A stretch of DNA of 64,000 nucleotides, taken from Marsupella aquatica. Its lineage: Eukaryota; Plantae; Marchantiophyta. Positions 3,739 through 41,345 of this stretch are shown here, one piece after another. The stretch spans positions 19,851,869 through 19,915,868 of the forward strand of contig OZ316892.1 in the NCBI GenBank assembly GCA_973895155.1, written 5' to 3'. The stretch's first letter is position 1, and the number at the start of each line of letters is the position of its first letter. A program made the position numbers and the translations under genes. The notes beneath the pieces were generated by a model. It was not told the DNA's origin. It was given only the letters and a program-made list of their open reading frames with translations, and ran no database searches.

Positions 3739-3744
3739 TTTCAA

Positions 3745-4135
3745 GAATTGTAGTCCTTTGTAAAGGACTATAGTCCTTACTCAAGTGTTTACTCCTTTGT
3801 AAAGGACTATAGTACTTACTTAAGGACTTGACTCCTTTGTAAAGGACTATAGTCTTTATTCAAGGATTGTAGTCCTTATTGAAGTACTTTACTCCTTTGT
3901 CGAGGCCTGTCTTTAGTCCTCATCCGAGGACTATGTAGTCCTTCGATAAGGACTTTAATCCTTTGTAAAGGACTATAGTCATGGGTTGTGTTACGCGTAT
4001 AGACTAGTCCTTTGTCAGCGAGTGAAGCGCTTTGACCAAATGATTGTAGTACTCCTCCCCGATGGACTTTAGTCCTTAAGCTTTGCTGGTAGTCTTCCAA
4101 TGAGGATTCCAACCCTTGCTGAAGGACTTCAGTCT
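3745..4135. repeat. Array of AGGACT-N(1-3)-AGTCCT palindromic units in the transposase intron
   Basis: Repeated variants of aaaggactatagtcctt and aaggacttgactcctt. Confidence 0.8.
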
Positions 4136-4238
4136 AAAAGTAAGTAGTACCCAGATATCTAGGGATTTTTATGGCTGCACATTTGAGGGTGTCTATTTGC
4201 TATAGTATTTCTAATAAAACTCTCCTGTATGTTTACAG

Positions 4239-6375
4239 TATCAATTCTATTCAGCATTTCGTGACTGGTGCACAAGGGAGCAGAATGGGGTGTCTGTAGG
4301 GATGCGGTCATTCATACACTTCAAGCCATATTATGTTCGCAAGATGAAGGACCGAAATGTTTGTTGCTGCAAACAACATGTGGAGATGGACTTACTGAAA
4401 GAGGCAATTAACAAATTTAGGTGGCACCAGCACAATAAGGACTGTCCTTGTGAATGTGATATCTGTAGACCCTTAGGTGTTGTACCCATTTCTTCTTGTA
4501 TGGCATCTACAAAGTCCATAACCTCAGTTCGTGGCTGGATAGAGGAAGCTCTCTATCCTAGATTGCCTGAGAACGAGTGGCACCAAAAAGCCTGTATTAT
4601 AGGTGAATGTGACAAATGTGGAGTAGAGAAGTTGGATTGGTGCACTCAGGAGTTGGACCCTGCACAGAAACAAATGATCGATTGGCAGTCATTTGAATAT
4701 CATGACCTGGATGACACTGCCCAACAAAAGAGAGAGAAAAAGAAAGGGTCTGAAGAGAGCGCAACAAAGAAGGCTAGGCGGTTGAGGATGGTTTATAAGA
4801 AAACTCCCATGGTAGATTTTAAGAGGGCGGTGTTGGATACCATGAAAACATTTATTGTGCATAACTTTCAAGCACATTGGCAGTCGCAACAATTTAGACA
4901 ATGTCTCAAAACATTTCCAAGAGGGACAATTGTTTCTTCAATAGATTTTTCAGAAAATTACACTTTTTTGCCTCAAAATGAGATTCAGAGTCAACATTGG
5001 GACAATAAGCAAGTGACATTGTTAATCCATGTTACCTATAGACATAGGGAAGATGCCGATTCACTTGAAGCTGCAGTGGGTAGGCCTGTGCAAGCAGCAC
5101 AAAATGCTGATAGGACTCGTGATATTATAGCCGATTACCATTTCTACATTAGTGACGATAACTGTCATGACACTCTTTTTGTGCAACATTGCATGGATGC
5201 ACATTGGGAGTGGATGGCTGATCAGGGCATTCATGTTGATCAACATTGGGTTTGGTCTGATGGGGCTGCCTCTCAGTTCAAGGCCTGCAGACCGTTTTAT
5301 TACGTCAGTAGGTACTACTCGAGGTTTGGTGCACGGATGAAATGGTTCTTCCATGCCTCTGGCCATGGGAAGGGTGTTGCTGTGAGTATCTTTTGAACAC
5401 ACTTTGCAACCAATTCTGTGAATACCCGCCTTTCAACTGAAGTGTAGTAAGTTTCTAATGGAGTTAAATGTCCAGACTTGCACACCGAAGAGACTTCTAA
5501 TTTGTGTTTCTGGTATGCTGTAATAGGATGCTCTCGGAGGTCACATCAAGACCGGGCTTGCAACTGAGCAACTGAAAGGCATCAATGGTCATCGTCTGGA
5601 GGGTGCATCAGATGTGGTGAAGTTTTGCAAAGACAAGTTTGCCGTTGGTCAATTGCAAGAGTATGGTGATGTGCAACTCGTTCGACGTGTTTTTTGGGAA
5701 ATTCCAGTTGGCACTGTAAACAGAAGGAAGAAGTAAGATTGTGATCCAATCAAGGATTGTAGATCTTTGCACTGCTTTGATGGATTTAGTAAGAGTTTGT
5801 CAACATTGTTGCAAGTTCGAGAGCTCAGTTGTTTTTGTGTAGCTTGTGTTGATGATGATCCAATGAATTGTGAGAACAAGGAATGGGTGGGCAAGTATCG
5901 CCTAGAGATGGTCAAAGGGGTATTGCAGGCAGATGTCACACCTAATGTACAGAACATCGGAGAGGGTGAAGGACTGCTTCACAACATCTCTCTGCCAGAA
6001 TGTGTCCAATTGGGAGATTTCTATGCATGTCGTGCTTGTCAACCGAATCAAGATAATGTAGATTTCTACATTTATCAGTGCGAAGAGGTGCTCCACACAG
6101 TCACAAAGAGTTTTGCTGATGGGTACCAGGTACAATTCAAGGCAGGGGACATGGCCTTAAAGGGGAGGTGGTTCCAACCATATCCAGGATCTGAAAACAA
6201 GTTTGTCTTCAATTCTGCTTCTCCTTTCAGCTACTGCCACCCAGGGGAAGTCATTCACATTCGATTTGGTTTGACACCATGTGACGTGCCCAAGGGAGGC
6301 AAGGGATGAGGTGCTAGATTTTACACACTAGACTCAGACACTATAGAAGCCATTTATGACTCGCTGCAGGTGTAG
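4239..6375 (+). pseudogene. Sola2-type DDD transposase (3' exons, disrupted)
   Basis: CCCKQH and Cys-rich region, DFSENY, QSQHW, WSDGAASQFK, and HGKGVA|DALGG across a GT-AG intron at 5382-5526. Premature stops at 5734 (TAA) and 6307 (TGA); likely true stop at 6373-6375. The upstream exon is separated by the Copia insertion. Superfamily assigned from recalled motifs. Confidence 0.72.
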
Positions 6376-8289: not shown

Positions 8290-8790
8290 GCAAGGATTTC
8301 CCAAGGACTTCAAGTCCTTCCTCACTCCAAGTCCTTGGTAAATCCTTAGAGTCCTTACCGAAGGACTTAGCCAAGGACTCAGTGTTCTTGTCGATGGACT
8401 AAGTGTCCTTTCCCAAGGACTCCTGTCCTTTCCCAAGGACTCAGGGTCCTTCCCCAAGGACTCCGGGTCCTTCCCCAAGGACTCCAAAGGACTCCCTCTC
8501 CTTGCCCAAGGACTCCGTGTCCTTGCCCAAGGACTCCGTGTCCTTTCCCAAAGGACTCCATGTCCTTTCCCAAGGACTCTTCCCAAGGACTCCGTGTCCT
8601 TTCCCAATGACTACTAGTCCTTTCCCAAGGACTCTACCCAAGGACTCCAAGTCCTAGTCATGGCCGAAAGACTCCCAGTCCTTGCCCCACGACTCCAATA
8701 AGGACTTCAAGTGCTTATGAAGGACTTTAAGTGCTCAAGCGAGAACTGAAAGTCCTTAAGAAGGACTTGAACTCCTTGGCCCTTGTTCTC
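8290..8790. repeat. Tandem CCCAAGGACTCC(G)TGTCCTT array of about 21-bp units inside an intron
   Basis: Many near-identical ccaaggactc/gtcctt units within the predicted GT-AG intron 8189-8882 (minus). Confidence 0.85.
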
Positions 8791-10262: not shown

Positions 10263-11507
10263 CTAAACATATATATCCAGCCTACAGATAGTTTGATGGA
10301 CACAGGGACAGGTCTGACATTGTACCTCCTCATCTTGCTCTCCCTTGAGCTCCTCAAGCTCTATTTCCGTTGACATGTCATCATACAAGGTGTCTACGGC
10401 CTTCACTTTGATTCTCACATCTTGCAATTCTTGCTGTAGTTTCTGAAGTTGGTCCACTAGACCAGAGCTGAGTTTTGGATGATCCTTGTTTGCTGCCTCC
10501 AAGTCTTGCAGAGTCTTCTGAACCTTACTGATGCTCTCATGGGTGTCTCTAAGACTGCATTTGATCGTGACTATTTGCCCATCCAGAATAGCAAGCAAAA
10601 GACTTCTTGGCACTATAGGGACAACAGGAGAAATAGGCTTGGCAAAGAGAAGCGTTGTTGCGGGGGCAGAAAGGGCAGCCTCCAATGGTTTGGGATGTGC
10701 GCTCTCGTGTGCGCTTCCCTTGCTACCAAAATCCGCTCCTGAATCGGCTGTCCCCGGATGAGCTTTGTCCCCTGGCGCTTGATGCTTGATACAAATCTTT
10801 TTCCTAACCCGATTCTGAGTATCTTCACTAAATTCCTGAGGCACTGGTGGCAAATACAGAGGCAACCTCCTAACGCAAGGAGGCCCATCTGGCTTACCCT
10901 TGCCATCTCGCTCCCATTGGGCAATTTGCCCCTTCAGCTTCGACACCGCATACACACACCAGTCCACCTTTCGCCTTTGGATCCTTTCTGCATATGCCCC
11001 TTTGATGAAAGTGAAAGACAAGAATCCATTCACTGGTGCATCGTAACCATCCACGACTTGGGATAGCTGCAAAACCTCCTCAATTGGGAGGCCCACACAG
11101 AGACTCAACTTATACCCATTCCTGTCTTTCTCTCCAAACACTTCGGCCAATTGCTCCTTGGAAATGTCTTTGATCTTATGAGGATTAACACCTTCATTTG
11201 GAAGACCAAATGTGACATGGAAATACTCTGCGTCCTTCACATAATCTTTAGGATCCCATGGCTCTAGAGGCGGCTCCACCTTAGTCTTTGGTTTTGAAGT
11301 TTTGATACTCTCTACAAGAGCTGGAGAGTCGGGAGAAGCACGATCTGTAGCTTGGGAGACATACGTGGTTGGTTTGCTAGTGGACCAGACTCTGCTACGA
11401 GGGAGAACAGGGTCTGGGACTGTAACTATCTCCATTTCTCCTAGCTCAAGAGTAGAAGTTCTAGGAGCTTCTGGATTATCAGTTGAGGCATCCATGACGG
11501 CATTCAA
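10263..11507 (-). CDS. Transposon accessory protein with a plant-mobile-domain-like region and coiled coil
   Basis: 414-aa ORF with FGLPNEG...NGY...C...AER...VDW motifs, then a heptad-rich segment; resembles the ORF at 51965. Confidence 0.55.
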   Translation of the reverse strand: MNAVMDASTDNPEAPRTSTLELGEMEIVTVPDPVLPRSRVWSTSKPTTYVSQATDRASPDSPALVESIKTSKPKTKVEPPLEPWDPKDYVKDAEYFHVTFGLPNEGVNPHKIKDISKEQLAEVFGEKDRNGYKLSLCVGLPIEEVLQLSQVVDGYDAPVNGFLSFTFIKGAYAERIQRRKVDWCVYAVSKLKGQIAQWERDGKGKPDGPPCVRRLPLYLPPVPQEFSEDTQNRVRKKICIKHQAPGDKAHPGTADSGADFGSKGSAHESAHPKPLEAALSAPATTLLFAKPISPVVPIVPRSLLLAILDGQIVTIKCSLRDTHESISKVQKTLQDLEAANKDHPKLSSGLVDQLQKLQQELQDVRIKVKAVDTLYDDMSTEIELEELKGEQDEEVQCQTCPCVHQTICRLDIYV

Positions 11508-13383
11508 AAATACGCTAGTACAGAGGAAAGTTGTGGTGAAAACTCAAAGTATAAGCAAGCGTATCGGGCCAACACCTACATTATTACCTCAGGACTGCTG
11601 CGGATTGAAAATGGATGTTGGTTGGATTCAATCACCAACGAATCGGGTGAAATTTCCTCCGCTGGCTTCAAACAAACCGCCCGCTCGGGCTACATGCATT
11701 ACACAATGGAATTAGAAGGTTGCATAATTACTCCAACCAATGCAGCTGACGGATAATCCCGTGTTAATAGCACGCGAACAGATAGGGTTACATACGACGG
11801 TCTATCGAAAAGTCAGCTAAGGAATCAAAAGAATGCTAGCCATCATTTTTGAGAGTTTGATCATCATGTGCAAACCAAACCTATGTCACCGACCCGTTGA
11901 AGTGCTCAGATGTGAAAAAAAAATGAAATCGCTTCCGGAAGTAAGTTGGCCGTCCTCCACTAGCTTCCCTTTGTTGCCAATAAACTCTGCTGCGATGAGA
12001 GCTCTTGGGCTGTAATTATCTCAATGGTTTGAATGGGCCGGGCCAACATGGACAATCTTGCAATGCGCAACAAAATACCTACTCGTTTGCAATTTCTCGT
12101 CGCTCTCTCTTCCTGCCCCAACACTCGAACACTACTGATTTTGGCTATGGACCTCAAGCTGCTTGGTGTCCACCATGAAACACTTCGTAAAATTTGATAG
12201 GCTCAGGCATAAAACTCTCAATAATACTCCTTTGTCCTCGAGTCCTTACTACTGTTGAGACTATCGCGCCAAAGTTGGAAGGACTTGGAGTCCTTGTTTT
12301 CAAAATGTCCTGGCCGGCGGGGATTGCGAGGACATTTATTGTAGGTTTCCAAGACTTCCGAGTCCTTTTTTTGAAAAGTAAACGACGGCTACTCGCCTCG
12401 AGGACATTAAACACATCATAAGTACTCTATATGAGGATACGAGTGCAAGCTTTACTAGGGTCCTACTAAATCCAAAAAAGTTCATTTAATGGAATCAGTT
12501 CACCAGTTCAAATCTAGCCTTTGATATACGTATCCTCAATCTTGGCCATTGAGGGATATGTTGCACATTTAATGCAAAATGGCAAGGACTCGAGTCCTTT
12601 TTGTGGAGAAAAAAGGAGAAAAATGGTAGTCCTCAATCATGCAATGGACCTTAGTTATATAGCTACAAGTACTACAGGGGAATTTACAAACGACAGCAAA
12701 TAGATAACAGTAACAGGAAACAGATTCTGGTACCAGTTAAAAGGAGCTGTTACCAGTGAACAGTGTTTGGATGGTCGTGAACAGTTATCTTAAAAAAAGG
12801 TCTCAAAATCTCCATTTGAAAGTACAAGAATAGAAAACAAAACCACCAAACCCTCGTGATAAATAAAAGAACAACAAGGAAACAATTTTTTGAAACATAA
12901 AAGACGGCTGCCAATTGAGATACACAAAATCCAAGACAAATACAAGTAGAAAAGAAAGGCTGGAAAAAACATTCGCATATATTATCGCAAAATAGAAAAC
13001 GCGGTCGGCTTAAGTGATACAAAATGCAGTTATCAACATCAACAATCTGGCCTAAAAATCCCATCCATGAAGTCACGGTCAACACCGTCGGAGGTTTTCA
13101 ACTAATACATGAACAGCGCTCGGCGCTAGCCAAAAATTAACTAGAAAACTAGTCGTTTCTTGGAGACAAGATGCGTCCAAACCCAGACAACATAGTCAAG
13201 ATCCATTCCCTCCCACAAAATCCGTTGTCATTTCAATAGCGCCCGGCGCTAGCCAACCTAAATAGTAGACAATCGGGAAAACTCTAACGCCAGAGCTGAG
13301 GTCGACTTCAATGCCACAAAATCCGGAAAACTTTAGCAGCGCCCGGCGCTAGCTTAAAGCGATCAGCAAAACAAAATTTCCAT

Positions 13384-13845
13384 CTAGCTTTCCGAGTTGC
13401 AATCATCATCCACTCCTGCTGCTTCTCTCCGCCGATCTTTCTTGAAGCCGAGACCATGCAAACGAACGTATCCCTCTGAAGGTCCTCGACGAACAGCCCT
13501 CGTAAAATGTTCATTAGGAATATTACTGTCCTTAAAATCAACTCGCCCAAACATTTCTTGTACTCTTCGATCGATTGGGAGTACCCCATCAACAAGAACT
13601 CCCGGGTGAGACAAAAACCGACTAGAGAACGGAGGCGCAGGGGAATCGACAATCCAAGGGATGTTCTTCTCTCCAGGACTAATAGCCTCATCATACGGGA
13701 GAGCATGACGATTCCGAAAAGTGGAAGTTGCAGTTTCTTCAGTCTCCATCCGCAATTCAAAAGAGCTGAAATGGCTCTCTTCCGGACGCACACGAGAAGG
13801 ACGAAAAGCTGCCTCCCAATCCATTGGCTCATACTGACTCGCCAT
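13384..13845 (-). CDS. Small hypothetical MULE accessory protein (153 aa)
   Basis: ATG-initiated open frame inside the MULE, with element palindromes just downstream and a tandem array upstream; no recognised domain. Confidence 0.4.
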   Translation of the reverse strand: MASQYEPMDWEAAFRPSRVRPEESHFSSFELRMETEETATSTFRNRHALPYDEAISPGEKNIPWIVDSPAPPFSSRFLSHPGVLVDGVLPIDRRVQEMFGRVDFKDSNIPNEHFTRAVRRGPSEGYVRLHGLGFKKDRRREAAGVDDDCNSES

Positions 13846-13989
13846 GTTTCAAAGACCCCGATCTAATATGTAACCTCTCCTCCCGTAAGAATGTCATCCG
13901 CGAGTGCTATAGCCGACAAAGGTCAAAGAAAGGTCTGCAAAGACTAAGACGCCAGATAAAGGTCCGCGTACACTACCATTCTGAAACGA

Positions 13990-14320
13990 CCATCAAACTA
14001 TCATCATCCTGTTCTATTGCCTCCCGAAACTATCTTCACCTTGGTAACAAGTATCGTCCCGTTCTATCGTCTTCCCGAAACAAAGTCTTCCCAAACGAAC
14101 TATCATCCCGTTCTATCATCACGTTCTATCGTCCTCCTGAAACAAAGTCTCCCCTCCCGTTCTATCGTCCCGTTCTATCGTCCTCCCGAAACTATCATCG
14201 TCCTCAACTATCGACGTCCCCAACTCTCGTCGTCCCGAACAAACCTAAACTGAAACTATAGTCGTCCCTTCCGCCCGGTCCCTAAACTATGGAATCATCG
14301 TCCCGAAACTATGGTCCCCA
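13990..14320. repeat. Degenerate tandem repeat (ctatcgtcccgtt / cccgaaactat units)
   Basis: Directly visible short repeats upstream of the 153-aa ORF. Confidence 0.7.
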
Positions 14321-14591
14321 ACGGCTTTCCGACGACTGACTAAAGAACACAATCCAAATGGCAGTTGGTATCCAATGACGATGACCGTTGACAGGAAACG
14401 ACAAAGACTAAACGGCCATTTAGAGATTCCATTTGGCGAGCGCCAGGCGCTTGTAAAGAACAGAAGTCAAAAGTAATCAACAAGTAGAGAGAAATCAACA
14501 ATTTAAAAGGACCCTCAACAGAGGGAAATAATACAGATGTTACAAGCGCCGGGTGCTGCTAAAAGATTTAGCGTCAACTACCCACTACTTC

Positions 14592-17500
14592 TCACGGTTC
14601 CGAAGATTCTGAGTTGGAACCAGAATCTGTACTCTGGGATCTGTCCGTGGACACAACCTCATCATCTACGTACTGGCTGCGGGAGAAGTCATCAACATAA
14701 GGATGTTTAATGAACTTTCGGTCAACACCCCTTCGTAACCGAAGACCTTTGTTTTCCCAACAAAGTGTCCTTGCACTTTCTGCTTTCCTTGCGGCTTTCT
14801 CTGCATAGGAGGGAAGAACAAACGGTTTTTCCGGTGTTTCTACGTTGTGTCTTGCGATCTTCCTCCGCAGTTTGAATTGTCTCCTTGCATTCCACTCTGA
14901 GCTGATATAACAAAGTCCATTTTGTAAGGCGCCTTTTCCCAAAACAACAAAAGAAATGTTATGAATTGACGGGAATGGAGAAAGAAGCTTACAAGTTTAT
15001 GAATATAACTCGGAAGAGTCATCACTATCGGTTTCATCTGCAGTTGCACGACGCTCTCCCTTTTCCTCCTTGGAGTTTCTTGTACCTTGTTCCTCTCCAC
15101 CTTCACTCGATTCATCATCAGAATCAAAATTGAGAACCGACCGAAGCTTATCTCTTTTTTTTCTGTCGGCAGTAGGAACAGGTGGAGGTAACACTGCAAT
15201 CTCTTTGGGAGACAACAAATCCATGAAAACCTTTGAAGCGGTTTCAATAAATTCTTTTCGGTGTTCTATCCCGAGTACAAATCGTCCAGAGAAGTCGCTA
15301 GCAATGTAAGAGCTTCCAACCCCAGCAGTCCAATCCATAAAAATATCACGAGGCCGTGTGATAAGCTCTATAACAGATTGCATAAAACCCACAGACAGAT
15401 GAGCATTTCCAGCAAACTCCATTTGCGGGAATGGATCTGATTTGAGCGAAGAGAGTCCGATCAAATTGGTAACCAAAGGGTCCTCACTGATGGACAGCGG
15501 CCAAAATTTGGGGTCTTTGGGAATTTTACATTTCCCATTAATTCGGCCAAATATGTCAAGCCTGAGGGTAAACATCTCTCGGTCTGTCTTTGCCGCATAC
15601 ATCGGGTCAGACATCACAATATTATGCGAGCATATACACTGAAATTTCCTTGACTCCTGACAGGCAGCAATGACTTGCGACATGGGATCGTACTCCCCAT
15701 TGTGTAGAATTACAAGGAACCCATCATCTGATAAAAATGGATCCATGGATTTGAAAAAAGATCTAGCCATTGAGTGATCTGGAATGTTCCATTTAGGAAC
15801 CTTCTTATCAATGATAGATGGTTTGAACCCGGTCAGTAGGTAAATGAAGCCGGCATCCATCCAAACGATCTTACTTTTCCCCCCCGAACAACTCCCTTCT
15901 CTTTAAATCCCAACTTAACGAGGTCTTTTCCCCATTTCTCCACATCACTAACCCACTCGGCTTCTCCTCCTTGTTGAACGTCGAGTCAAAAAATTCAGAA
16001 AGGCTTGTCTCAACCATGCAATGGCGAGACACAGTTGTTTTGAAGTTTCCAACTTCACGTTGGAAACCAGAAGCTATAACACTCTCCCTTAAAGATTGTC
16101 CACCTTTGACAGCTCTCTTTCGTTTCTTCCTGGTACTCGTGGCGTCGATAGGAACTATAACCTTCCCTTTGTCGACTGGAGTAATGGGGTCCGATCGAGC
16201 TCCCGTGTTTGCCTCGGAAACTTCAGGTGTAGCATCCTTTTTCGTATCTCCCGTTCCCACCGTATTAGACTTCCTCCCTCCTAAAATATAACCAGGTCGT
16301 AGTTAGGATAAGTACTTTTAAAGTATTGAAAGAAGCTAGCGCCTGGTGCTAACCAAATGCAATTCACTTAAGTCGCAACCGAAGCCTAATAACCAAGAAA
16401 GAGAATACCCTCAACAGAATATTTTTTGCCAGCGCCTGGCGCTGGCAAAATCATGGATAGCAATACTTACTCTTCTTTCCAGATTTAGTAGACTCGCTCG
16501 GTGCTGCTAGCTCCGCTTTGGCTTTCGCGCGAGGTTTGCGACTCCGGTCCACATGCACAACAGTTGTTTCACAGATAGTTTGCAAGTTTATGGCAGACTT
16601 GTCTACATCGTCAAGTAGACCCTACTTCATGTCGGACACAAGTTTTGCTGGCATCTGAGACTTTGAAAGCTTATGGAAGGCATCTTTTTCCCTTTGATCA
16701 AAAGAAGAATCCCATCTATCTGTATCTAGATACCAGGGGCAGTGAGTTCTCTCCCATTCTGTCATTGGTCTCGGAGGAAATATGCCCTCCATGGGGTACA
16801 TAGAGTACAAATCAGCCAAGGCATCATCTTCACTTATTGAAATCCACTTCATAAAAGCTGCAGGATATGCCCAGAAGTAATCAGGTTTGGTTACCTCCAT
16901 GTGCATGTAGAACCTATACACAAACCTCTTCGCTTGCTTTTGGTTTCTCTGGGTGTAATCTTCTTTGTCAGGGTACTTTGAAGGCCACATAGTGTGAAAG
17001 AACTTATTCTTCACGGAATCACCAAATCTCTTGAATTCATTTGTAACAAACTGAACTAGATCATCAAACGAACTACAATTCCACTCTTCCAATCTATTCG
17101 CGGGCATGGTTTGCTCAACTTCACGTAGACATGAATGTAACATGCCAGCAGCAATTCCCTCCACACTATTCCAAGTGATCCAAGTGTGGCACCACTGTTT
17201 GACTGGATCATCGTTAACACTTGCTGGGTGAAAAAACTGTCTCCGCAGCTCAGGATTGCAATGTGCCACAAGTAAAGTGCTTCGTAACTTTGGGTCTAGA
17301 GCATAAACAGCGGTGAACAATCGTGCGCGGTCCATCGTACATACAACGGTGTCAGGCTTCTTCTCTCTCTTGTTTCTCTCTGTGATAGCATACATTTCTG
17401 CACATGTACTGAGGAAATCTTCAAATTCAGGACTTAATAAGGGCGTAATTTTTGAAGACTTCACTGCCCAATCTTTGGTTGCGTCTTTCATCATGGCCGC

Positions 17501-18685
17501 ATGCCGTTTTGAAATCTCGTCCGCCGACCATGGACTCCCTTGAGCCTCCGCTGCCTCCATGTTGAGTTTGAATTGATGCGAGTACGACTTTATCTTATTC
17601 TCACAAAGAATGTAAACAAGTGCTTCTTGTGGCATCTTCTTCGTATACCATGACCCCTTCCAAGTTTTCAGCCGGGAATGCTTTCAAACTTCTTGAAATT
17701 ACCCGGGTCAATCAGTTTACTGTAATACAAAAGGTCATGCGCCAGAATTCGTTTGATTCTGTCCGCATCCAGGATCCAGGAAGGCTCTACAACTGCTTGG
17801 CCAAGCCTACACGAACAAACGTTGAGAGTAAGAGTCAATGAAAAACAATTCATGTATAAGCAGCGCCGAGCGCTAGTAAATACAGCACTCGCAAGATTTA
17901 AGGAAAGAACTGGAAATCATGAGAACTTACTGATTCACGGTGTGCATAGCTGCCTCAATTTCAATGAGAGATCCCTTGTCTCCTTTAAATATTGTACAGA
18001 GCACACGAGGATGATATTTTGGATTTTCCGGGTTCTCCTCTGTTACAAGCGTCCAGGAGTACAGCCTGTGATTTCCATCGAATACAGAGAACATCTTATC
18101 CTTCAAGACGAGAAAATCCGGGTCAGCCTCGCATTCAGCATCAAACTTCTCGTTCTCCAATTGCCATATTGGATCCCATGAATCACGAATGTCTTGGGTA
18201 CAGGTCAGAACAATTCCGTTCTCATCCGTTGGCTGCACATAGAAACGCATCCCTATCGAAGAGTTGTAACCCATACTACGAAAAGAGTCTTTCAGCTTCT
18301 CGATGGAAGAGCTGTCTTTCTGCAGAGTACGAACCACCTCCATGTGAACCAATCGACATAGAGGGATTCAAGGCGGTTCCTTGTCAAATCCACGAGAATC
18401 CCTTCCAAAAGACATGACATGTTTCGAAATGAGATCAGTCTCAGCAAGCGCAAAATCCGCAACATCCTGGATCGCAATTGTGTCTACGTTGTCCATCTTT
18501 CTTCGCAAAGGATTTGGACCCAAAACACCACTGACAGAAGTGAACGGCAACAACTTTGAGGAATGAGTTACACGACGTGTATAGACTGAACCAGTAAACG
18601 AAGACTGCAAAGATTCAAAATAAGCTCGCTCCTGGTCAGGAACCGCACTATACCCTCTGGAAGAAGAGGGGAATACCTCCATCAT
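14592..18685 (-). pseudogene. Multi-exon ParB-like plus beta-class N4/N6 DNA methyltransferase-like gene
   Basis: IPLCRL..MEVVR and VFDGNHR (ParB/Srx-like). KIVWMDAGF occupies the DPPY position, followed by FLSDDGFLVI and IELITRPRDIFMDWTAGVGSSYIASDFSGRFVLGIE (SAM-binding motif I). GT-AG introns near 17808-17929 and 16282-16469. Lesions: TGA at 18368, frameshift near 17690, TAG at 16622, extra base in the run at 15879-15885. Confidence 0.75.
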
Positions 18686-18940
18686 CTTCCTTCTAGAAGC
18701 GTACGAACTATCGTACAATGAAATTATGGAACTATAATCATCTCTGAACGTGTAATATATTCTAGCGGGAGGATGACATAACCTAGAGGAAAGCCATTAG
18801 CTCTGATGTTTGGCGGTTTCCAAGGTCTGTATACGGAAGGTTTAATTACCAAAATCAAATGGTAGAAGATGCGTAACACACACGGAAGTCATAAGTTACC
18901 GTTGAATGTTACCGTTAAAGACATTTCCTAACATCATATC

Positions 18941-19370
18941 AATACTAGCGCCGGGCGCTAGCATTAATGATGACCATCAAGGTGAACAATTTAGAGTATG
19001 CTTATAATAGCGCCCGACGCTAGTATAAATTGGAAGAAATTTAGAGGTCTTTTTTGAAGGAGCTATGACATAAATTTTGGCCTTTCCACTCCCATATTTT
19101 ATTAAAGTATCCTTCAGTACATCGTTTACGGAGAAATATTTCTTAAATGTAATACTAGCGCCCGGCGCTAGTATAAATGTTCATTTATCATCCATAATCC
19201 ATCAAAACCATCCTTTGAAGGCACCATTTATTCCCAATTACCACCTGGTATGTGATCATAATGTTCATTTTCAGGGAATTTATTCTATACTAGCGTCGGG
19301 CGCTAGTTTGGAATGTCGAGATTTCAGACACATTTTTAGTGGCGTATTTTAGTTAGCGCCAGGCGCTACT
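18941..19370. promoter_or_regulatory. Cluster of five AGCGCCNGGCGCT palindromes in the divergent intergenic region
   Basis: Copies at 18947, 19009, 19157, 19292 and 19355, several with extended arms (atactagcgcccggcgctagtat); a regulatory role is inferred. Confidence 0.6.
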
Positions 19371-19581
19371 AAAATTTGACAATACCTTGTCATATCTTAT
19401 GGTCTGTTTGAGTAAGGTTGGTGATCTTTTTAGCAATATGTTTGTGTCTGACATCCAGACTTCTCGGGGAAAAAACGACAAAAATCATTTATGGTGCCAA
19501 CGGATCCTCCATCGTCAATGTTTTATGTCGTATACAAACGGATCGGTTAACATCAAATTCCCAGGTTCGACAGATATAAGC

Positions 19582-21926
19582 TGTCACGCGATTGACATGG
19601 GTCTTAACACCAAAAACGTCACTATGGGTGCCAAAACCATCTCCTTGTACCTGAGGATCACGAAGGGATGTTGTGAATGCCGGTAAACACCAGTTTATGC
19701 CCTTAACACCAGACTATCATAGCAAGACTCTATCACACATCACCCAAGCTCAATCCCAAGGAACCAAGGTTGGGGATCAGATCTGCGCTCATGATAGTTC
19801 TGGTGAGAAGGGGTCTTCATATCGGGCCGGTACACACAGGGCCTAGCGCTACGGTGCGCATAGGTCTATACATATGCTTACTGTCATAGGTATGTTTCTA
19901 TTCCGCCGCCGGAATGTACCCATAAACCAGTGACTCCTGACTGATTCCCGGCTTAGGGACTTCTAAGCCATTGCCCCACCACTCTGCCATTCCACTCTCA
20001 ACAATCAGAGCTATGACAGTCCTCACCCAGCCCGCTTCAATGCACCCGGTACACCTCTCAGTGGCGCTGCTAGTTCCATCATACACTCAGATTGCCTCAC
20101 ACACACACACATCCATGAGAGAAATGAGGCCTGAGAGGAAAACTCAATTAGATTCAAAGATGTGCACAATAGTTCACTGAGAACACTTGATCCGAACACT
20201 AGGGCCGAAGGCTGTCTCCTCCAGATTGTGACGTGCTTGCCCTGCAAGCCCCGTGCTTGCCATGCAAGCTCAATCCTGAACTCAACCTCCTTCACTGCAC
20301 TTCATTCTTGGGGGCACATACAGATCTCACACCTCCAATTCAGAACATCAAGTTATGCATGCATAGTTGACTCGACTTCAAAGCTGGTACCAGGCCTAAC
20401 GGCGATCTATCCCAGACAGCAATGAGGCCCGGCCTCACGCTTGCCCTGCAAGCTCAGCTCTGGCCATAGATCCCTTAGTGCTCTCCACCAGACAAAGGCC
20501 GGGACTCCCCATGGGTCACGTAGCCTTGCCAGACTGAACTGTAAATGCTCCTCCTGCTGCCCCTTAATCAGTACCTCAGCCTCCCTAATGTGCCCACCGC
20601 AAATCGAATTGAAATCCTCCCCACAGTTTACAATCACCAATACATCACCTATCACCAAGGCTCTGTATCGGGGGAAAAGAACCCAGTTGTGCTGCCCACT
20701 AGAAAGAGCCACAATCCAGCTCGCAAACCTAGCAACCCATTGCTGTGAAGCTTGGCTGATTACTCCCTGAGTAATAGCACAACCAAGCTCTCCCCAACAC
20801 GCAGCGTCCAAGTCCAGCCTTGCTTGCACAGAGCTCCTCCCCGCTACTCAGTCTAAGTGAGATCACACAACTGAAGTCCCCCCCTCTCTACCGGGGGGCT
20901 GCTCTATATACTCTCTCATTGAGCCCAAATGGGTGGATGCTACGCTGCTGGAGCCCCATCCCAGCCCTAACAGAGCCGCCACTATCTCTAACTACTGAAC
21001 CCTAACTCGCAACTTTATTTCTATCTCGAATTGGCTATGTACTTCGGATTCGGCCCTCCTCCATGGTTTTCGCGAGCTTACGCCTTCTCTCCTGATTTCT
21101 GTATTCAACCATTTGCTGCGTGGATAACAGCGTTGGAAGCGACTTGAGCTCCTCTTTCCAACGAGGTCAATTATAGCCGATTTGGTCAAATACACAGAGA
21201 GTTATGCCCCCGTAACCGAGAGGGGGTACTCACTGTTGCGCTAACCCGAGTTACATAGCTAACCCGAGTTCGGCTAACCTAGCTATCCTATCTAACCCGA
21301 GTAGAGCTAACCCGTGGTCTCGGGTTAGGCCGTTACCCGCTATCCGCTATCCTAGCCTAAGCTGAGCCCGAACCCGAGCTTACCTATGCTAACCTGACCC
21401 CGAGTTAAGTCTAACCCGGGATCAATCTAATCCGAACCCGGGTTAAGCCTAAGCTGAAGCCGTGCTTACCTGAGCTAAGCTGAAGCCGTGCTGACCTAAG
21501 CTAAGCTGAAGCCGTGCTGACCTGAGCTAAGCTGAAGCCGTGCTCACATAAGCTAAGCCGTGGTCGAGCTTGGGTTAACCCGAAACTGAAGCCGAATCCG
21601 CTAATTCCGGTCACAAGTTAACCCGTCACACTAATCAGGCCGTATCTTTCTTAATACACCTCCGTTTCCTGAGTGTTTTATATCGATTTTACTCGCCTTG
21701 ACCAGATCTTTCCAATGCTCTTTACAGATCCGGATTTGGTGACATATTGAAAGAGATATGGTCGTCGACCACCTGCGACATAGCTTTTATTTCCCTACTC
21801 TTAACGCCATGATTGCCCTTATTCTTGCCATCTTGCTAATTGTTATGCAATATCAATAGCTACTCCTTGCATACAGCAACCTACTTAATCAGATTACAAA
21901 ATAAGGACCATGTCATTGGCGTCACA
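19582..21926. mobile_element. Solo LTR (2345 bp) nested in the MULE
   Basis: TGTCACGC...GCGTCACA termini with a perfect 5-bp TSD TAAGC (19577-19581 / 21927-21931); no retroelement coding domains. Confidence 0.85.
21240..21600. repeat. Tandem repeats within the solo LTR (taacccga units; 26-bp gctaagctgaagccgtgctgacctra)
   Basis: Directly visible. Confidence 0.8.
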
Positions 21927-21995
21927 TAAGCTGAACAATACCATGAACTTTTCTTCTTTCAAACGCTATAGCCCTCGGTTTTGTTTTTGTTCACC

Positions 21996-24900
21996 ATGTC
22001 TCGGTCTATCGTTCTTTCTCGATTCGGTTCTGAAGATATTGTGACTATCCCCGTCCCCATGGAAGATACGTACAAGCAAGTCCAGGAGAGGTATCTCTAC
22101 GGGAGATTTGATTTGAAGATGAATGACATTGAGGCCATTGTTCGAGAGCTCGAATCCATTGATGATATCGAGGATGCTGCAACGTTCAATGTCGATGACA
22201 GTGAACGGTTTTGGCATCTCTACGCAGGGATCTCGTACTCGGTTCGTTTAAGACAGCATGCAGGACTGTCCAGTTTCCCGCCGGTACCATGTGATGTGGT
22301 TGAGATTTCTTCAAGTGAGGATGGAGATCATACTCTAAGTCCACCGTCGAAGAAGAAAAGCCCGCTCCCTGTTATCGTGAAAGTTGAGACTCCGGGAAGC
22401 TCTAAGCAGTTGGAGGTCGTGTACCGGCGCAGTGCAATGGATACGTTACTCAAATCAACTGGTCATAGTGAGTTGTCACGGTTCATATCAGCGGGTGATT
22501 TCAAGCATGAACAAGTGTCTTGTCTGCCAACTAAGTACAATGGTAACGTCGTGTTTGAGTTGCCGCCCATTGATAAGATGCTCTCTAAAGGCTCTAGGCT
22601 TAGGGACATGGATCGTGCCAAAGATTGTTACATTTGGACACGCATATTTCCAACAACTGCAACTGTTCATCCTAAAAACCTTTGGCAGTTTGGGAAGGTT
22701 ACCTGTACGGGATTCATTGAATGCAGGAACAAGTCCTGCGACTATTTCCAAAGGAAGAAGAAGGCAAATGCTAAGGCATGGCAGGGTACTCCAAAGCTCA
22801 GTGGTCAGTATGCTGTGGGATCTTTCATCGAAGAGGGAGGTGTTGTTTGTCATTACTGCGAACAGATTCCTTTTTGTGTGAAGTACTGCCCTGCCCGTTT
22901 GTTTTACATGTACCCCAAAGTATTACTTGATGCGGAAACATGTAGTCATATGTCCCGCCTGGCAATTCATATAGGTGAGCACAACCATCCAGGTAGAAAA
23001 ACCTTCTGTAGGAGTGCGGAGAAGATAGCTGAGGATCTAATTAAAAAAAACATGAAGCCAATCCTCTGTCAAAACCGGCAGGGATCTTGAATTCTGCTAC
23101 AGGGTCCTTAGTGAAATCTCTCTGCGAACATGTTGACGACATGGTCGATATCGAAGAAACTGAAATATGGAAGTCTCTGATGGTCCTTTCCACTCCGCAG
23201 AAGTTTGCATCTCTTTGTCGGAGCGTTAGGATAGACCAAAAAGGTTGGGGTGAATTAGATTTTCTCTCGCAAATGCAGAGGAGGATTCATGTGTCGTTTC
23301 TCCAGAGGTATTTGCTTCCAGGTCAGGGATGTCAGAACGATAGGCCTCACATCTTTAAAATGACCGTGAAAGGTCATGGTTCCGGTGTGGATCTTTTGAG
23401 GCAGATGCAACCAGGTGGAAGACTCGAAGGAGCCTGGGTAAGTTTCGATGTGATGCAGCGTGTCACCACGGATTGGTTTACTTTCAGCGCACACGTCTAC
23501 GACCACAATTTCCGTGCACTGTGTACAATTTTCACATGCGAGTTGAAAGGTGAAGACACTGAGTCTTTTGAAAAGGCATGGAGAGTGATGATTGAGGTTT
23601 GCAAAGAAAATGAACTTCAGGAGGTTGTCATCCAAGGATTTATGGCCGACAATGCACAAGCTGGATGGAATGCAGTGCGAAATGTTTTTTTTGGTGGACA
23701 CCCGGACCCGGAGAGGGAGCGCTTTGATGCATTTCACTTTTATCAATCTTTTCATCGTCATTCCAAGGAAGGAGTACTGGAAGAATGTCAATCGGAGCAT
23801 CGGAGACTTTGGGAGAAACTGAGAAATGCTCCATCATTTGTGGCAGCATACCGGGTGTCCTGAGAGATTGTTGTGTGGTGGCAATCAGGAAATCGTGTCC
23901 CCAGAAAGCTGAAGATGCTGCAAAGCTGGATATCTTGGTGGGTTGTTCGCTGGCGCCAGTGGGGCAATTTTATTCGAGTGGTAAGGCATCCATCTATCTA
24001 GACTGTAATGTTCATCAACTTCATATTAGCGCCAGGCGCTGGTTATTTTCTCCATACGCGTCAAAACAAGTAGTACAAGAAATTGAAGCCAATATGTAGT
24101 TAGAATTCAGTATTAAACATTGAAATTGTATTTCAGGCTTGTTCTACATATTTATGTTGCCAGCGCCGGGCGCTGGTAATAGAATACTACTTATGGTTGA
24201 CATTTTCGTATGGCAGAGCAAAAGTGCTGAGGAAGGTGCCTTGATCCCCAACTGTACAGAGTCAGAATCAAGGCATGCGTCCATGAAAGCCTCGGCTACA
24301 AAGAAAAAGGTCGGTCTTTATGAAGCTTGCGAAGTTGACCAAAACCGTGCTCTGTCTCAAGTTGCAGGATATAGTGCATACCGTAAAGGCTTGAACCGGG
24401 GGAAGGGGCCAACTATATGGGAATTGGCGTTCCGTTCCGCCGATCAAGCAGGTTCGCCAAGATTGTTTGAAGAAGCGACTAATATGCTTCTATCTAACGC
24501 AGCAGAATTCGATTTGGAAAGAAGTACTCCCCTGAATGGAGATATAATGACGAAGTCAATGAAGAGGAAGGGACATGCAACTGGGACTGTCTCTCCACAA
24601 GATTCCCATTGGCATGACACCGTTCTAACAACCACACCAAATACTCGTGGTTTGAAAAGGAAGAACCTGAACATAACTGACTTTTCTTCTATTCCCTCAA
24701 GTTCTGATCATCCTGTCACAAAGGCGGTGAATCTCTCAGGTATGGTCACATCAGAGAGTGATACTGATTCACTGGACTATACTCCTCAAACAACCCGAGC
24801 AACAAGATCCTCAAAACCTCCGCTCAGTGCCCAGCAGCACTTCAGATCAACTTCCACGCACGATTGTGCTAGAGAAGGATGTCCCTCCGGGGCAGTGGCA

Positions 24901-25748
24901 GTTGCGACGGACATCGAAGTATGGAGCAGGTCCGCAATGCAATGGTACACTGAATGGGAGTTTGGATCGCGATGAGTGTCGAAATCGTATCAAGAAGGTT
25001 GGCTTCCATTCGTCTGAAGGTGTTGTCGGAATTGTCGTGAAGGGCCATCGTCTCTTTAGGGGCGAACCCATCTCCGAAATGATTTGGTTTTGCCCGAACC
25101 AAGCATGTTACAAGAGTCATCCGCGTTGTGGTGTTCAGAAGCTTCCTCCTTTTCCTGACATTTTGCCTGTTCTGAAGGGTACGAGCCTGTCTCCTTCTGA
25201 AATTACATTCCTGGAAGAGCAAGGACTTGTCTTAGCGCGAACAACAGGATTGAGTCGATCTGCGCCATCTGCTTTTGACCTCAGGATAAATATTAACGTG
25301 TTCCCAGAAACAATAAGGTTTTTGGAGCCGAATCTCCGACTTGGTAGTCGGAATGGGAGGAACTCAAGGCCTCGGTCTAATCTCACTATGGGTCACACGA
25401 AGCGAATGGAGTCTGCACGACAAGAAGTGATGAGTTTGGATGGGGAATGGAATGTTCAGACCGGAAATGCTTTTGGAAAGCAATTTCGAATTCGAACCCA
25501 TGAGAACCATCGATCACCAAGCACATACTTCGGCCAAAGTCTGGAGCCGAATCCCCGCTTGCTCTTGTGAAGACTTCTTCCTCCGACATTCGCGTGGCAA
25601 GTCGTACATGCCTTGCAAACATCTATACTAGGTGTACATAAATGTTTTCAAACTTGAGATTGAGGAGTCGACTCTTTGTAGCCAACCTATTTTGACTTTA
25701 GGCGAAGTCAGGCTTGTGCTGGAGAGGCAGAACTTGAATGGCTTATGA
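21996..25748 (+). pseudogene. Mutator-type transposase with a GCM/WRKY-like Zn domain, DDE core and C-terminal SWIM finger
   Basis: CTGFIECRNKSC...CHYC...C...HIGEHNHP; FDVMQRV; FMADNAQAGWNAVRNVF; DAFHFYQS; PNCTESESRH; CSCEDF...PCKHLY. Intron at 23981-24216. Frameshifts near 23045, 24770 and 25530; stops at 23861 and 25629. Confidence 0.8.
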
Positions 25749-27300
25749 GAGAGATCGAAACTGCCCAATAGGTCGTCGTTCAATATAACGGTTATTCCCT
25801 ATTTTGTCTTTTTCCAACGGATATTTTAGTTGTTTTATTGAGACTTTGTTGGTTAGCGCCGGGCGCTGGTTCTAGGAAACCGGATATTCATTGCTTCATT
25901 ATGTACGTGCATTGTGGAAGAATGACCTCTTGTTTTATTTAAAATGTGTAAGTTGATTAAATTGTCTACTGTCTTCAAAGCCTCGAGGATGTGATTTGTC
26001 ATTTGTTTGTGACGTTACAAGGTCCATTTAATCAACTCCTTTAGATTGGGTTGATTTGGACTCCACGATTGACATGTGCTATGGTGGGTCCCACTCTAAG
26101 GGTCACTATTTGGCGATGAAAATAGATTGATTTGCATGAATGTTTCTTTAGGCACACTCCTAATACCATGTTTTTTATCTTCTACAATAAATTGTTGTGT
26201 CAATGGAGGATTGATAGTACACTTCATCCATCGGATGGCACAAAATAATTGTTTGTTTTAAACTTTATTGCCCCCCGAAAAATTATGCCATTAGAGTGGT
26301 GGATATGCACCTTAGAGTGGTGGATATGCACGTTATGGTTTAGGCAAAACTGGTAACAGGGACAAGCTTACTAGTAACAGGTACAATTTCCCTGTTAACA
26401 GAAAATAAACCCCTGGTAACAGGTTTTCTGTTTTCTGTTTTCTGTCATGGCTATCATACCCGTACTATATGTGTCTAATATGTCATGTTATCACTTTAAA
26501 TTTAGTGACACTACAAGTTGTAAATGTAATTTGGTTATGATTTCAATTCTAGTCATATAACTAGTATTAAAAATTGACACAGTATCTTTAAGACTCAAAA
26601 TCTAGTCATATAGTGGCAAGGGCTATATAGTTTCTACATCAGGATTTAGGATCCATCCCTTTCAACAGTGTGTCATGATGATTTCATTGCAATGTTTAAA
26701 CACCATTGTTTTCTGCACTGTCTGTTTCATCATTGGTTCATTGTTGAATGGACTGACGTTGATTGGTCTAAAATTGTGATGACTTGTATTAGTGTTGTAT
26801 GCGTGTTGAAACATTGATGGTTTACTAATTGCAGTTTAGACGATGAAAAGCATTATAGAAGCATTGCTGAAAATATGGACAATGATTTAGTAATTTTTCA
26901 GTATCACATATTCAATGAATTCCCTCAGTTTTTCATTGTCTATTCATTGCATATTACCCTTAGATATGTTGTGCAATGTTTTCACATTGATACATTATGA
27001 GCATTTCAGTATTGAACAATTCCATTTTCATTATAACATATCCATGGGTGCATTGTAAGAATAATATAGATTCATTGATGACACTTCATGGTTGCGCTGT
27101 TAATTAATTGAGGTTTAGTTGTTGGGGTTAGACTTGTATATTTGTTGTTGTCTTTTTAACTTTTCATTGTGTTTTCATTGCATATTACCCTCTCATATGT
27201 GACACAATGTTTATATACTGATACAGTATTTAGTTTTTAGTGTGGAATGGTCCACTCTTTCCAAGGTTGAATTGCAAATGCATTGTTTAAAGGTCATCTT

Positions 27301-32724: not shown

Positions 32725-34153
32725 TGTGGTATACCCGTTAGCGATAATCTTCTAAATAGGAGACATTTTTAATTTTTTTGGATGGAAGTTAGAAACTTTG
32801 AGGTTGTAAGCAGGATAATTAGCCATAAAGAGCATTAAGTGAGTAGGGAAGAGGAACGGCCTTTACCAAGAAATGAGCGCTTCAACCTGGTGACCGGTAG
32901 CAGTAAGAGCGCGAGAAAGAATGAGTATTGGCGGAGGAGCTATGCAGGTCGAGGAAGAAAACCGAAAGCTTAGGACAATTGTTGAAGCTGTAATGTGACA
33001 CCACTGATTGAAGACAGGGCGCTGCGAGTAAAACAGGGATAATTTTTGGGCAGAAGTGTCAACTCATAAGAGGCGCCCTCTGTTAGTAGTTCTTAAGATA
33101 GCACTATTTACTTACTCAGAGCACCTTTAGTAAGTTTACTAAGTAGATGTTCACTATTGTTTTACCGACAGCGCTACTAGTTGATTTTCCACCATAGTAA
33201 GAAGTCTCTTTTCTAGTTAGCAGCACTCAGTACTCTACTACTTTTCATACTAGTTAAAACTACAGTATGTAGTTTAGTTTAGATCAGCCTTTCTAGATCT
33301 CATTTTAGTTACTTTTCTTTCTAGATTCTAGGGAACACTTTCTCTGCCCTGACTTTGATGATACTTAAGCCCTTGTTTTTCCTCATTTCGGGTGAGAAGG
33401 ACTAAATTGGAAGCCTGGCTGTAGATGCAAGACTCCCGGTCGCTCCCTTTGTTTGTGATCTATTCAGTTGTAGAGATTGCAAATGAAGTAAATGTTTGTG
33501 TTGAGGAATTTGTTTTGAAAGATTCCTCGATAAACAAGTGTATGTTCAACTTCTGGAAATCAAGATGAATTTTATGATTGATTGCTTACAGTGATGAGAA
33601 TCATTCAAAATTCAAAGATGAATGTTTATAGGAAAGTGTCAAATCTATCATTGAGGGACAAGAGTACCATTATTATGCCCTGGACTTTTGCATTAGTGTT
33701 TTGTCTATGCCATACCTGATGCCTAGCCAAACCGTGTTGCCATCATTTTAATGCAAAGCTCGGCAATTATAATCTGAAATTTACCTTGAAAACGGTAGAG
33801 ATTATATCTTTCCTGTGATCTTCTCATGACAAGAGCGAGATTTTGAAGGAGAAGAATATAGGAGAATGGGTTGAGTAAGACCCTAATCTTTGTTGAAGGA
33901 AGGGCAATGCCATTCATATTCCTTGAATTCTTCCTTATGTAAATCCACCTTCAATCATGATTCCAGAATTAGTTGTTACTGGTTGATTTTATTCTGTGTT
34001 TGATCGGTTGAAGATAGAGAAATTTGAGAGGTCAGCTTATATCTCTTCATTAACACTATTTCCTTCAATAGCTTCCACTTTGTTCTTTACGGGATCGACT
34101 TTGGGTTATCTTTGGCTTTAAACCTTGTGTTTTATTTATAGACCTATACCACA
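32725..34153 (+). repeat. 5' LTR
   Basis: TGTGGTATA...TATACCACA. Confidence 0.97.
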
Positions 34154-34265
34154 TAGATTTTTGGCGCTGCTGCCGGGGAACGAATTGGAAGTAATTGAAA
34201 CTCAGACAGTGAATGCCACTTGTAGTGAAGGATTTTAAGAGCTTAGAAGGGAGAATTTTGGCCTC

Positions 34266-35083
34266 ATGGAGCCATCTGTGGAATGGCCGGTGATGACATT
34301 TGAGACCTATTCTTTCACCATTGACAATGCACCACCTTCTTTTGAAGAATTGTGGCGAAGGAGAGCGCTCCGTGCAACTGAAAGGAGAAAAGAACGCACC
34401 ATTAAGAAAGAAAAGCGAAATGGTGCATAATTCTCTGGCAGGGGCGGATTCTTGGTCCAGACGGAGGGAAGTGTTACTTTTTTGTACAGTATCAGGAGAG
34501 GAGCGCTGATTTACTATGAAGAGCGCCGCGGGTTGAGGATGTATTGGTTCTGTTGAAGGGGGAGGCCCTGGGTTCAGGGAGATTTTAGGGAGATTCGAGG
34601 GAGATCCAAACCATTACGCTCAAGAGGAAGTTCTGGAGGAGAGCGCTATTAGATAGCAAAGGACGACTCCAGCCGGAAGCGGAAAATTCGGAGATTGGAC
34701 TTGTGCGGCAGTTACAGACGGAGCGCTACGGGATAGCAAGGGGCGCCCTCAGATTTGAAGCTGGCCCGGACGCTATCATGCCCTAGGTTCAGGGAAGTAC
34801 CTTTGAGTTTCAAGTAAGGGTGGACGGCTTCTTGATTAGAACGGTAAGGCTGGACAGAGGTTCGAGAGTGAATTTGCTTTCTTCTTGGTTGGTAGAACAA
34901 TTAAATTTGGGACCACTTTTTGCCACCACAGTTAGGATTTGGTATGACGGGCATATCCTTCGACCTGTAGGGGAACTTAGGTCACTTGCTATTCAAGTGG
35001 GGGATGAATACTATGTTATGGATTTTGTTATAATCGATCCCCCAGTCATGGAATTTCCTGAAATGGTGTTGCGATCCTTTTAA
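34266..35083 (+). pseudogene. Degenerate extra ORF upstream of gag ending in an aspartic-protease-like domain
   Basis: VRLDRGSRVNLLS...LRPVGELRSLAIQVG...MDFVII...MVL parallels the element's own VDGGSSVNLM...VVPVGRL...LEYIVI...ILL. Confidence 0.5.
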
Positions 35084-41308: not shown

Positions 41309-41345
41309 GCTTGTGAGGGCACTGCGCCGTTTGAAGGGGGGATTA

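Follow-up and report, generated by a model that had tools for sequence, protein, structure and literature searches.

A stretch of 64,000 nucleotides from the liverwort Marsupella aquatica (assembly GCA_973895155.1, contig OZ316892.1, positions 19,851,869 to 19,915,868; hereafter the window, whose own numbering is used throughout) contains a Mutator-like DNA transposon (12677..26461) of 13.8 kb, or 11.4 kb without the long terminal repeat (LTR) nested in it, which belongs to a multi-copy family and is present here as a broken copy. It is bounded by 8-bp target-site duplications (TSDs), GTACTACA on the left (12669..12676) and GTACTATA on the right (26462..26469), which differ by one C>T change, and by degenerate terminal inverted repeats (TIRs) of about 110 bp that start with GGG, on the plus strand at 12677..12786 and on the minus strand at 26350..26461, with 67 of 121 columns identical between the ends; a contig of the family begins at 12680, near the left end. 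Mutator-like elements are described as having TSDs of 8-11 bp (PMC6446971), and the duplication (with its one mismatch) and the TIRs fit that superfamily. The element carries two divergent genes, both broken in this copy, an accessory gene on the minus strand (14592..18790) and a transposase gene on the plus strand (21996..25770), and between them lie a shared divergent promoter region (18791..19581) and a nested solo-LTR-like insertion (19582..21926; 2345 bp, TG...CA ends, TSD TAAGC). Scattered over the non-coding parts of the element are sixteen copies of one palindrome, which, together with the protein that may read them, are the subject of this report.

The 13-mer AGCGCCNGGCGCT occurs in ten exact copies in the window, against a chance expectation of 0.00, and six further sites match it with one mismatch, making 16 in all, at precisely the positions that an earlier note on this DNA, made from the letters alone, had listed. 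Up to two mismatches give 18 matches where chance would give 0.69, and the two extras, at 19838 in the nested LTR and at 57586 outside the element, are at chance level and are not true sites. When symmetrised, the 16 sites yield a 19-bp dyad, RCYAGCGCCNGGCGCTRGY (RCYAGCGCC-N-GGCGCTRGY), with 28 bits of information and A/T-rich bases beyond it; a matrix built from the sites scores them at 22.4-32.1 bits and the next best place in the 64 kb at 12.1, and no additional sites with two or three deamination-type changes were found in the window. The central base is free (A in three sites, C in five, G in six, T in two), and each of the six mismatches is a C>T transition when read on the appropriate strand, two of them in CG and four at the outer C of CCG, that is, in the CCNGG core. 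No other palindrome family with 6-bp arms exceeds four copies in the window, where a host MYB-type motif is likewise not enriched (two matches against 1.97 expected), and a 17-mer pattern found one match in each of three viral contigs, which we take as chance.

As the earlier note had also observed, every site lies outside the exon model and inside the TSDs, and no true one is found in the nested LTR. Three sites occupy the left non-coding end, at 13115..13127 (one C>T in CCG context, 438 bp from the terminus), 13238..13250 (exact) and 13338..13350 (exact, just beyond the stop of ORF3, a small open reading frame (ORF) described below). Two follow exon 4 of the accessory gene, an exact copy at 14439..14451, in a 3' region or possible intron 4 (14340-14595, GT-AG), and one with a single CG>TG change at 14545..14557. 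Intron 2 holds two, at 16338 (one CG>TG, perfect in contigs of the family) and 16431 (a perfect 27-bp palindrome), and the centre of intron 1 one, at 17862; five (palindromes 9-13, at 18947, 19009, 19157, 19292 and 19355) fall in the shared promoter, two (24028 and 24162) in the GT-AG transposase intron (23981..24216, plus strand), and the last, exact, at 25855..25867, 3' of the transposase and 594 bp from the right terminus. Seven of the nine non-coding intervals hold sites, the empty ones being the 91-nt intron 3 and the short promoter stub beyond the LTR. Given that non-coding starts make up 31% of the LTR-free element, such confinement has a probability of about 7e-9 if the 16 sites are independent and of 3e-4 if they count as seven clusters (the LTR and intron limits in the scripts were a few bases off the coordinates given here, which leaves the counts unaffected). 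The 50 kb of the window outside the element, other mobile elements included, contain no site, and neither do the terminal 438 bp on the left and 594 bp on the right of the element itself. Those ends carry a decamer of their own, CTGKTAMCAG, at 12727 and 12747 on the left and at 26350, 26392 and 26413 on the right; five of its six matches in the window (0.25 expected by chance) lie in the two ends, which makes it the likely transposase site and a better candidate for that role than the palindrome.

The earlier note had described several of the palindromes as having arms extended to 23-27 bp, which proved overstated: perfect palindromes of that length occur at two of the 16 sites only (19157 and 16431), and the two arms of one site are no more alike than arms taken across sites (permutation p 0.19-0.44 over five ranges). 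The long arms reflect the shared consensus and the A/T flanks rather than hairpin selection, and a hairpin model was rejected for want of any own-arm excess. Beyond 10 bp from the centre, the flanks resemble one another no more than shuffled ones do, the top score being reached by 9 of 100 shuffles, and none of the sites falls in a tandem array; on these two grounds an origin by tandem duplication was rejected. The sites are often paired, 62-148 bp apart, with no clear helical phase in these spacings. TA stands on both sides of seven of the 16 and CA...TG brackets two, a pattern on which a TA-duplication or footprint model was rejected, since the former are too few and the latter represent no duplication. 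Some sites fold as RNA at -10 to -20 kcal/mol, and an Rfam search gave no matches. Because the arms follow one consensus and the flanks are unrelated, it is the sequence itself, not a hairpin or a recent duplication, that has been kept, and the palindrome has the pattern of a selected protein-binding site.

Contigs from other sequencing runs point in the same direction. Run X1 covers the LTR-free part of the element to a depth of 420-1650 and the right flank to about 54, and its contigs of 573-695 nt show 0-11 differences from the window, which indicates many near-identical copies of the family, depth itself not being a copy number. Contigs of three runs join across the nested LTR, skipping 2350 bases. 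In a contig of run X2, the exon-2 boundary and the palindrome are separated by 22 intron letters unlike those of the window (joint 17808 to 18946), which is suggestive of motif retention, short joints of this kind being also obtainable from other repeats. Run X7 shares 1% of the words of the family, and in the promoter it covers the palindromes and a small number of conserved blocks, leaving 19032-19143 and 19200-19255 at zero depth; one of its contigs (667 nt) extends over two sites and is about 84% identical there, differing at 16 of 103 bases, and of the 11 of these differences that are listed, ten lie outside the cores and one changes toward the consensus. Divergent relatives thus keep the motif, which is conservation and not co-variation with the protein. 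Upstream of the accessory gene, a non-coding block at 18852-18917, in which AACGGTAAC occurs twice on the minus strand, is common to divergent relatives and may be a promoter element.

The accessory gene is interrupted by stops and frameshifts and has an uncertain start codon. Named homologues, six of the ten looked up, are from the liverworts Calypogeia fissa and Riccia sorocarpa. Its exons, all on the minus strand, are separated by intron 1 (17807..17930) and intron 2 (16281..16470), both GT-AG, and by a tentative intron 3 (14902..14992) that has GT-AG ends and no copy of the 19-bp motif; similarity is lost at the intron-1 donor in all ten homologous ORFs, and the exon after intron 3 weakly resembles the protein P0072 (E 0.005). 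At 14921-14936, within intron 3, stands an even palindrome, AAGGCGCCTT, which resembles a collapsed site. ORF3 (13384..13848, minus strand, 154 amino acids) is either a separate gene or the last exon of the accessory gene, to which the GT-AG intron at 14340-14595 could join it; it has no Pfam or PHROG match and is preceded by a decayed 62-bp repeat, rich in Arg and Asp (about 13990-14340).

Three parts can be told apart in the predicted accessory protein, the first of which, encoded within exon 1 (at 17931-18367), is probably a ParB-type domain. It has ten homologues at 43-73% identity, and the sequence DGNHRL, which contains GxxR, is invariant in the 11 aligned rows. Weak profile matches were obtained to DUF1015 (E 0.019, one of 11 members) and to DGQHR (E 0.033, three of 11), a family that we take to be linked to DndB and ParB. 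DndB has been placed in the ParB superfamily (PMC10853773), and GxxR is described as the P motif (Box II) of ParB folds (10.1101/2025.10.10.680097). A search with the N-terminal alignment found none of 40 in viral contigs and two of 84 in prokaryote genomes, both being matches over 49 columns to unclassified proteins; the structure model of this part (predicted local distance difference test score, pLDDT, 49.5) gave no fold match at E<0.001 and is too poor to inform on the fold. Two bacterial proteins of about 485 amino acids that carry DGNHR (L003 9362-10822; L004 2964-4418) adjoin genes that look, by eye, like C5-methylases, and themselves have no convincing Pfam match. The middle of the accessory protein (16471-17806, a 353-amino-acid ORF) is uncharacterised, and word-based homologue searches returned none among 698 for this ORF and none among 564 longer proteins for the methyltransferase part, which is weak evidence in both cases. 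No ParA-like ORF is present among the ORFs of the element that were scanned.

The C-terminal part (about 15200-15880, followed by an acidic tail) can be assigned with confidence, on profile and model, to the beta-class amino-methyltransferase fold. It contains the sole Pfam domain found in the protein, PF01555 (E 4e-5), with 77 relatives at E 0.001 or better, and its model (pLDDT 91) matches CcrM (E 1.4e-12, Z 18.8, root-mean-square deviation 3.2 over 205 residues), M1.HpyAVI, PvuII and N4CMT (Z 16.7). The motifs come in the permuted beta-class order, motif IV before motif I, and the S-adenosylmethionine (SAM) motif I, DWTAGVG, aligns with DPFMGSG, the D, W, G and G of D-W-x-x-G-x-G being at least 90% conserved in 23 rows. 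The catalytic motif is what departs from the class. Motif IV has the general form (D/N/S)PP(Y/F/W), and beta-class enzymes are described with DPPY or SPPY (PMC10406627); the present protein has YLLT in that column and its nearest homologue YLPT, and in the alignment a bacterial PF01555 enzyme reads DAMY at this place and a protein from Riccia DPPT. In a tally of 32 rows, 12 of them fragments that do not cover the column, the Asp is kept in four of 19 covering homologues, all distant (20-24% identity), and an aromatic fourth residue in none of 20 rows. Since the homologues share the altered motif, the change is clade-wide and not a decay of this copy, and the methyltransferase fold is likely to be inactive.

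Some of this arrangement is already in print, namely a fusion gene opposite the transposase with the idea of self-binding, in algae, and ParB proteins with adjacent inverted-repeat arrays. The accessory gene of Sola1-1_Ec32 in Ectocarpus (PMC12477816) is likewise described as a fusion of ParB-like and N4/N6 methyltransferase domains, of about 1100 amino acids and opposite the transposase, and its proposed role is to bind the element that carries it and to modify it; compared by description, it differs in belonging to a Sola transposon of a brown alga and in a methyltransferase assumed to be active, whereas ours is Mutator-like with an altered motif, and the string "palindrom" does not occur in the main text of that paper. 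The PAG3 gene of Plavaka elements in Bostrychia (10.1101/2025.02.11.637652) is reported as a ParB-like accessory protein with inverted repeats proposed as binding sites, but there ParB is fused to a 2-oxoglutarate oxygenase with the methylase on a separate gene, and the repeats form tandem arrays beside the gene, unlike the fused methyltransferase fold and the single sites across introns and both ends found here. Methylases fused to ParB and helix-turn-helix (HTH) domains are mentioned from chlorophytes and chytrids, and DIRS1 elements are said to contain methylases that are inactive (PMC4738411). The same methyltransferase fold, of bacterial origin, is found in eukaryotes in MpDN4MT1 (10.1101/2021.02.12.428880) and N4CMT (PMC8885841, PMC10406627), as host genes that keep TSPPY (in MpDN4MT1) or SPPY, in contrast to the transposon-borne YLLT.

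For the sites, the closest geometry is that of KorB of plasmid RK2, which has 12 palindromes of odd length (TTTAGC-S-GCTAAA) scattered over the mobile element that encodes it and from them represses genes and controls them at a distance (PMC13768133); KorB is bacterial, its HTH, clamp dependent on cytidine triphosphate and partners are proven, its site is different and it is described with no methyltransferase fold, whereas the present case is known from sequence. The likeness to parS and ParB in general consists in a multi-copy palindrome on its own element (16 inside, none outside) and the GxxR motif. Another close parallel is VANC of VANDAL elements in Arabidopsis (PMC5735166), likewise an accessory gene of Mutator-like elements with motifs in introns, intergenic and terminal non-coding DNA, of which VANC21 is reported to bind those in introns and intergenic DNA. 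VANC motifs, as described there, are asymmetric words of 8-9 bp in tandem repeats, and ours a 19-bp dyad with unrelated flanks and no arrays; and anti-silencing is proven for VANC, whose counterpart here is a protein of bacterial-type architecture. The open-licence literature searched showed neither a case from land plants nor a dispersed dyad in introns, nor the motif itself.

We tentatively favour, at somewhat short of even confidence, the reading that the accessory protein docks as a dimer at the palindromes, by which it would recognise the members of its own family and probably keep them active. A dimer would read the dyad, perhaps through the unassigned middle region, while the ParB-like domain would bind nucleotide and might spread from the sites as KorB does; loading every 0.1-2.3 kb along the element could keep it open in the face of host silencing, with an effect in trans on every copy bearing the motif, as with VANC. 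The methyltransferase fold would then serve for dimerisation, SAM binding or the reading of bases, and not as a writer. That the sites are cognate to a protein of the element was already the proposal of the earlier note, and it is supported in part: they are confined to the element, dyad-symmetric, absent from exons, set in unrelated flanks and kept in divergent relatives, which fits such a role. Of the two binders that the note named, the transposase has the weaker case, since the decamer and not the palindrome is what the terminal repeats contain.

Among the site mismatches, those at 16347 and 19296 are private to the window copy, and the main X1 contig also has the one at 19017; a change of the same type occurs at 19165 in a contig of X2. 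Of the private differences in the promoter, 10 of 13 are C>T or G>A, and private CG decay affects none of 28 positions inside sites and five of 46 outside, with three of 180 in CHH context (H being A, C or T) outside. The copy was probably methylated at 5-methylcytosine. The ratio of observed to expected CpG is 0.64-0.88 in the exons of the element and 0.77 in its masked non-coding part, versus 0.28-0.71 in five other ORF regions of the window, weak support for an element that was historically less methylated.

Several points weigh against the docking reading. The claim of the earlier note that the sites remain CpG-rich amid nearby decay proved overstated too, since protection falls short of significance (Fisher p 0.15) and every one of the six site mismatches is a C>T; the window copy does show CG-biased decay, and the CpG surplus of the element is modest, overlaps that of other ORFs and may reflect age. 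The ParB call is at motif level, Pfam giving no match to a ParB family and the PDB none by sequence; the N-terminal part has no phage or plasmid match, and the bacterial protein aligned to it (94% by hhalign, 49 columns) is likewise without a ParB match. Pfam and PHROG family scans detect no DNA-binding domain in the middle region, and binding might either activate or repress. Of 47 candidates in a metagenome scan, two loci were retained, L001, a bacterial methylase, and L002, a distant, intron-bearing relative of 1.3 kb, and this one relative has no repeated palindrome. In run X5 (organism C), finally, the palindrome is part of a repeat whose summed depth reaches 24,900, compared with 0-62 in most other bins of the element, on contigs of 44-65 nt at 18937-18975 and 19150-19187 with arms of the ATACT/AGTAT type and with one joint that places two sites 11 letters apart; this repeat may be a non-autonomous derivative or an unrelated one, and the restriction of the motif to the family holds for the 64-kb window only.

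An accessory protein bound to the sites could instead restrain its element, either at the shared divergent promoter, where five of the 16 cluster, as a KorB-like repressor or a brake on copy number, or by compacting the DNA. KorB represses from its dispersed operators (PMC13768133), and DndB is reported as a negative regulator (PMC10853773), but here there are also sites in introns and in 3' DNA as far as 6 kb from the promoter, as with VANC motifs, and the exons of the element are relatively CpG-rich; we consider repression unlikely. We are similarly doubtful that the binder is the transposase or ORF3, with the sites acting as internal transposition enhancers or activation sites. ORF3 is without family assignment, and the AtMu1 transposase is reported to bind sequence-specifically and to be able to activate cognate copies of its family, yet its peaks sit at the TIRs (10.64898/2026.08.24.746577), and the TIRs of this element have their own decamer and are free of the palindrome.

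Recruitment of a host transcription or chromatin factor, with no element protein involved, appears more improbable still. The same 19-mer does recur in divergent contexts and in the very high-depth repeat of X5; against this, the other mobile elements and the rest of the 50 kb outside the transposon are devoid of sites, and the motif is absent from the literature searched. The 28 bits of the dyad also exceed the information in typical plant factor sites.

An active amino-methyltransferase, writing N4-methylcytosine (4mC) in the CCNGG core, or N6-methyladenine, as a self mark, is a very improbable role for the accessory protein. The clear beta-class fold, the conserved SAM motif and the existence of eukaryotic 4mC writers, in Marchantia and bdelloids (10.1101/2021.02.12.428880; PMC8885841), speak for it, but motif IV lacks the Asp in most homologues covering it and the aromatic residue in all, and four of six site mismatches are C>T within the very core that would be written, one of them shared with the main family contig. 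With these, and with a central base that is free, the link that the earlier note drew between CCNGG and bacterial m4C enzymes is not supported. Just as improbable is a neutral origin as hairpin-forming micro-repeats, insertion footprints or local duplications, to which the pairing of sites, their frequent TA flanks and the RNA folding of some might point, but which the lack of own-arm excess, the unrelated flanks, the seven TA-flanked and two CA...TG sites, the empty Rfam search and the persistence of the motif where flanks diverge all contradict.

A bolder form of the docking reading, which we regard as unlikely, is that a land-plant transposon has domesticated a parS-type system of bacteria, in which a nucleotide-gated ParB clamp would load at private palindromes in its introns and promoter and slide over the whole element, while the disarmed methyltransferase would read or shield cytosines, providing a family-specific escape from silencing independent of VANC. 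The ParB-methyltransferase cargo genes of eukaryotic transposons have so far only been proposed to bind their own elements, and the present one offers a candidate pair, a 28-bit dyad and one gene that likely reads it, in a family with near-identical copies. The pair makes testable the behaviour of a ParB-type protein on eukaryotic chromatin, the existence of an independent VANC-like system beyond Arabidopsis and the role of a catalytically altered methyltransferase fold and, if the reading is true, could provide a compact, sequence-specific tool for keeping transgenes active.

The remaining features of the locus can be noted more briefly. The broken transposase has an acidic core, FDVM...MADN, and a C-terminal CxC...CxH finger, motifs which from inspection by eye we take to be Mutator-like; Pfam scans of its fragments gave no MULE or SWIM match. 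The nested LTR contains short tandem repeats with periods of 26 and 33 bp at 21240-21560. To the right of the element, a young LTR retrotransposon (32725-42774), with 1429-bp LTRs that are 99.5% identical and with gag, reverse transcriptase, RNase H and integrase in Ty3/gypsy order, carries no palindrome. An inverted pair of about 1.85 kb and 87% identity (54714-56557 and 62183-64000) adjoins an open frame of 1008 amino acids (51911-54937) with no Pfam match. To the left of the element, arrays of 20-21-bp palindromic units of the form AAGGACT...AGTCCTT (3741-3976, 8304-8768 and 12240-12610) surround open frames at 4218-5396 and 10263-11543, neither with a Pfam match; this region is possibly an older element into which the Mutator-like transposon inserted.

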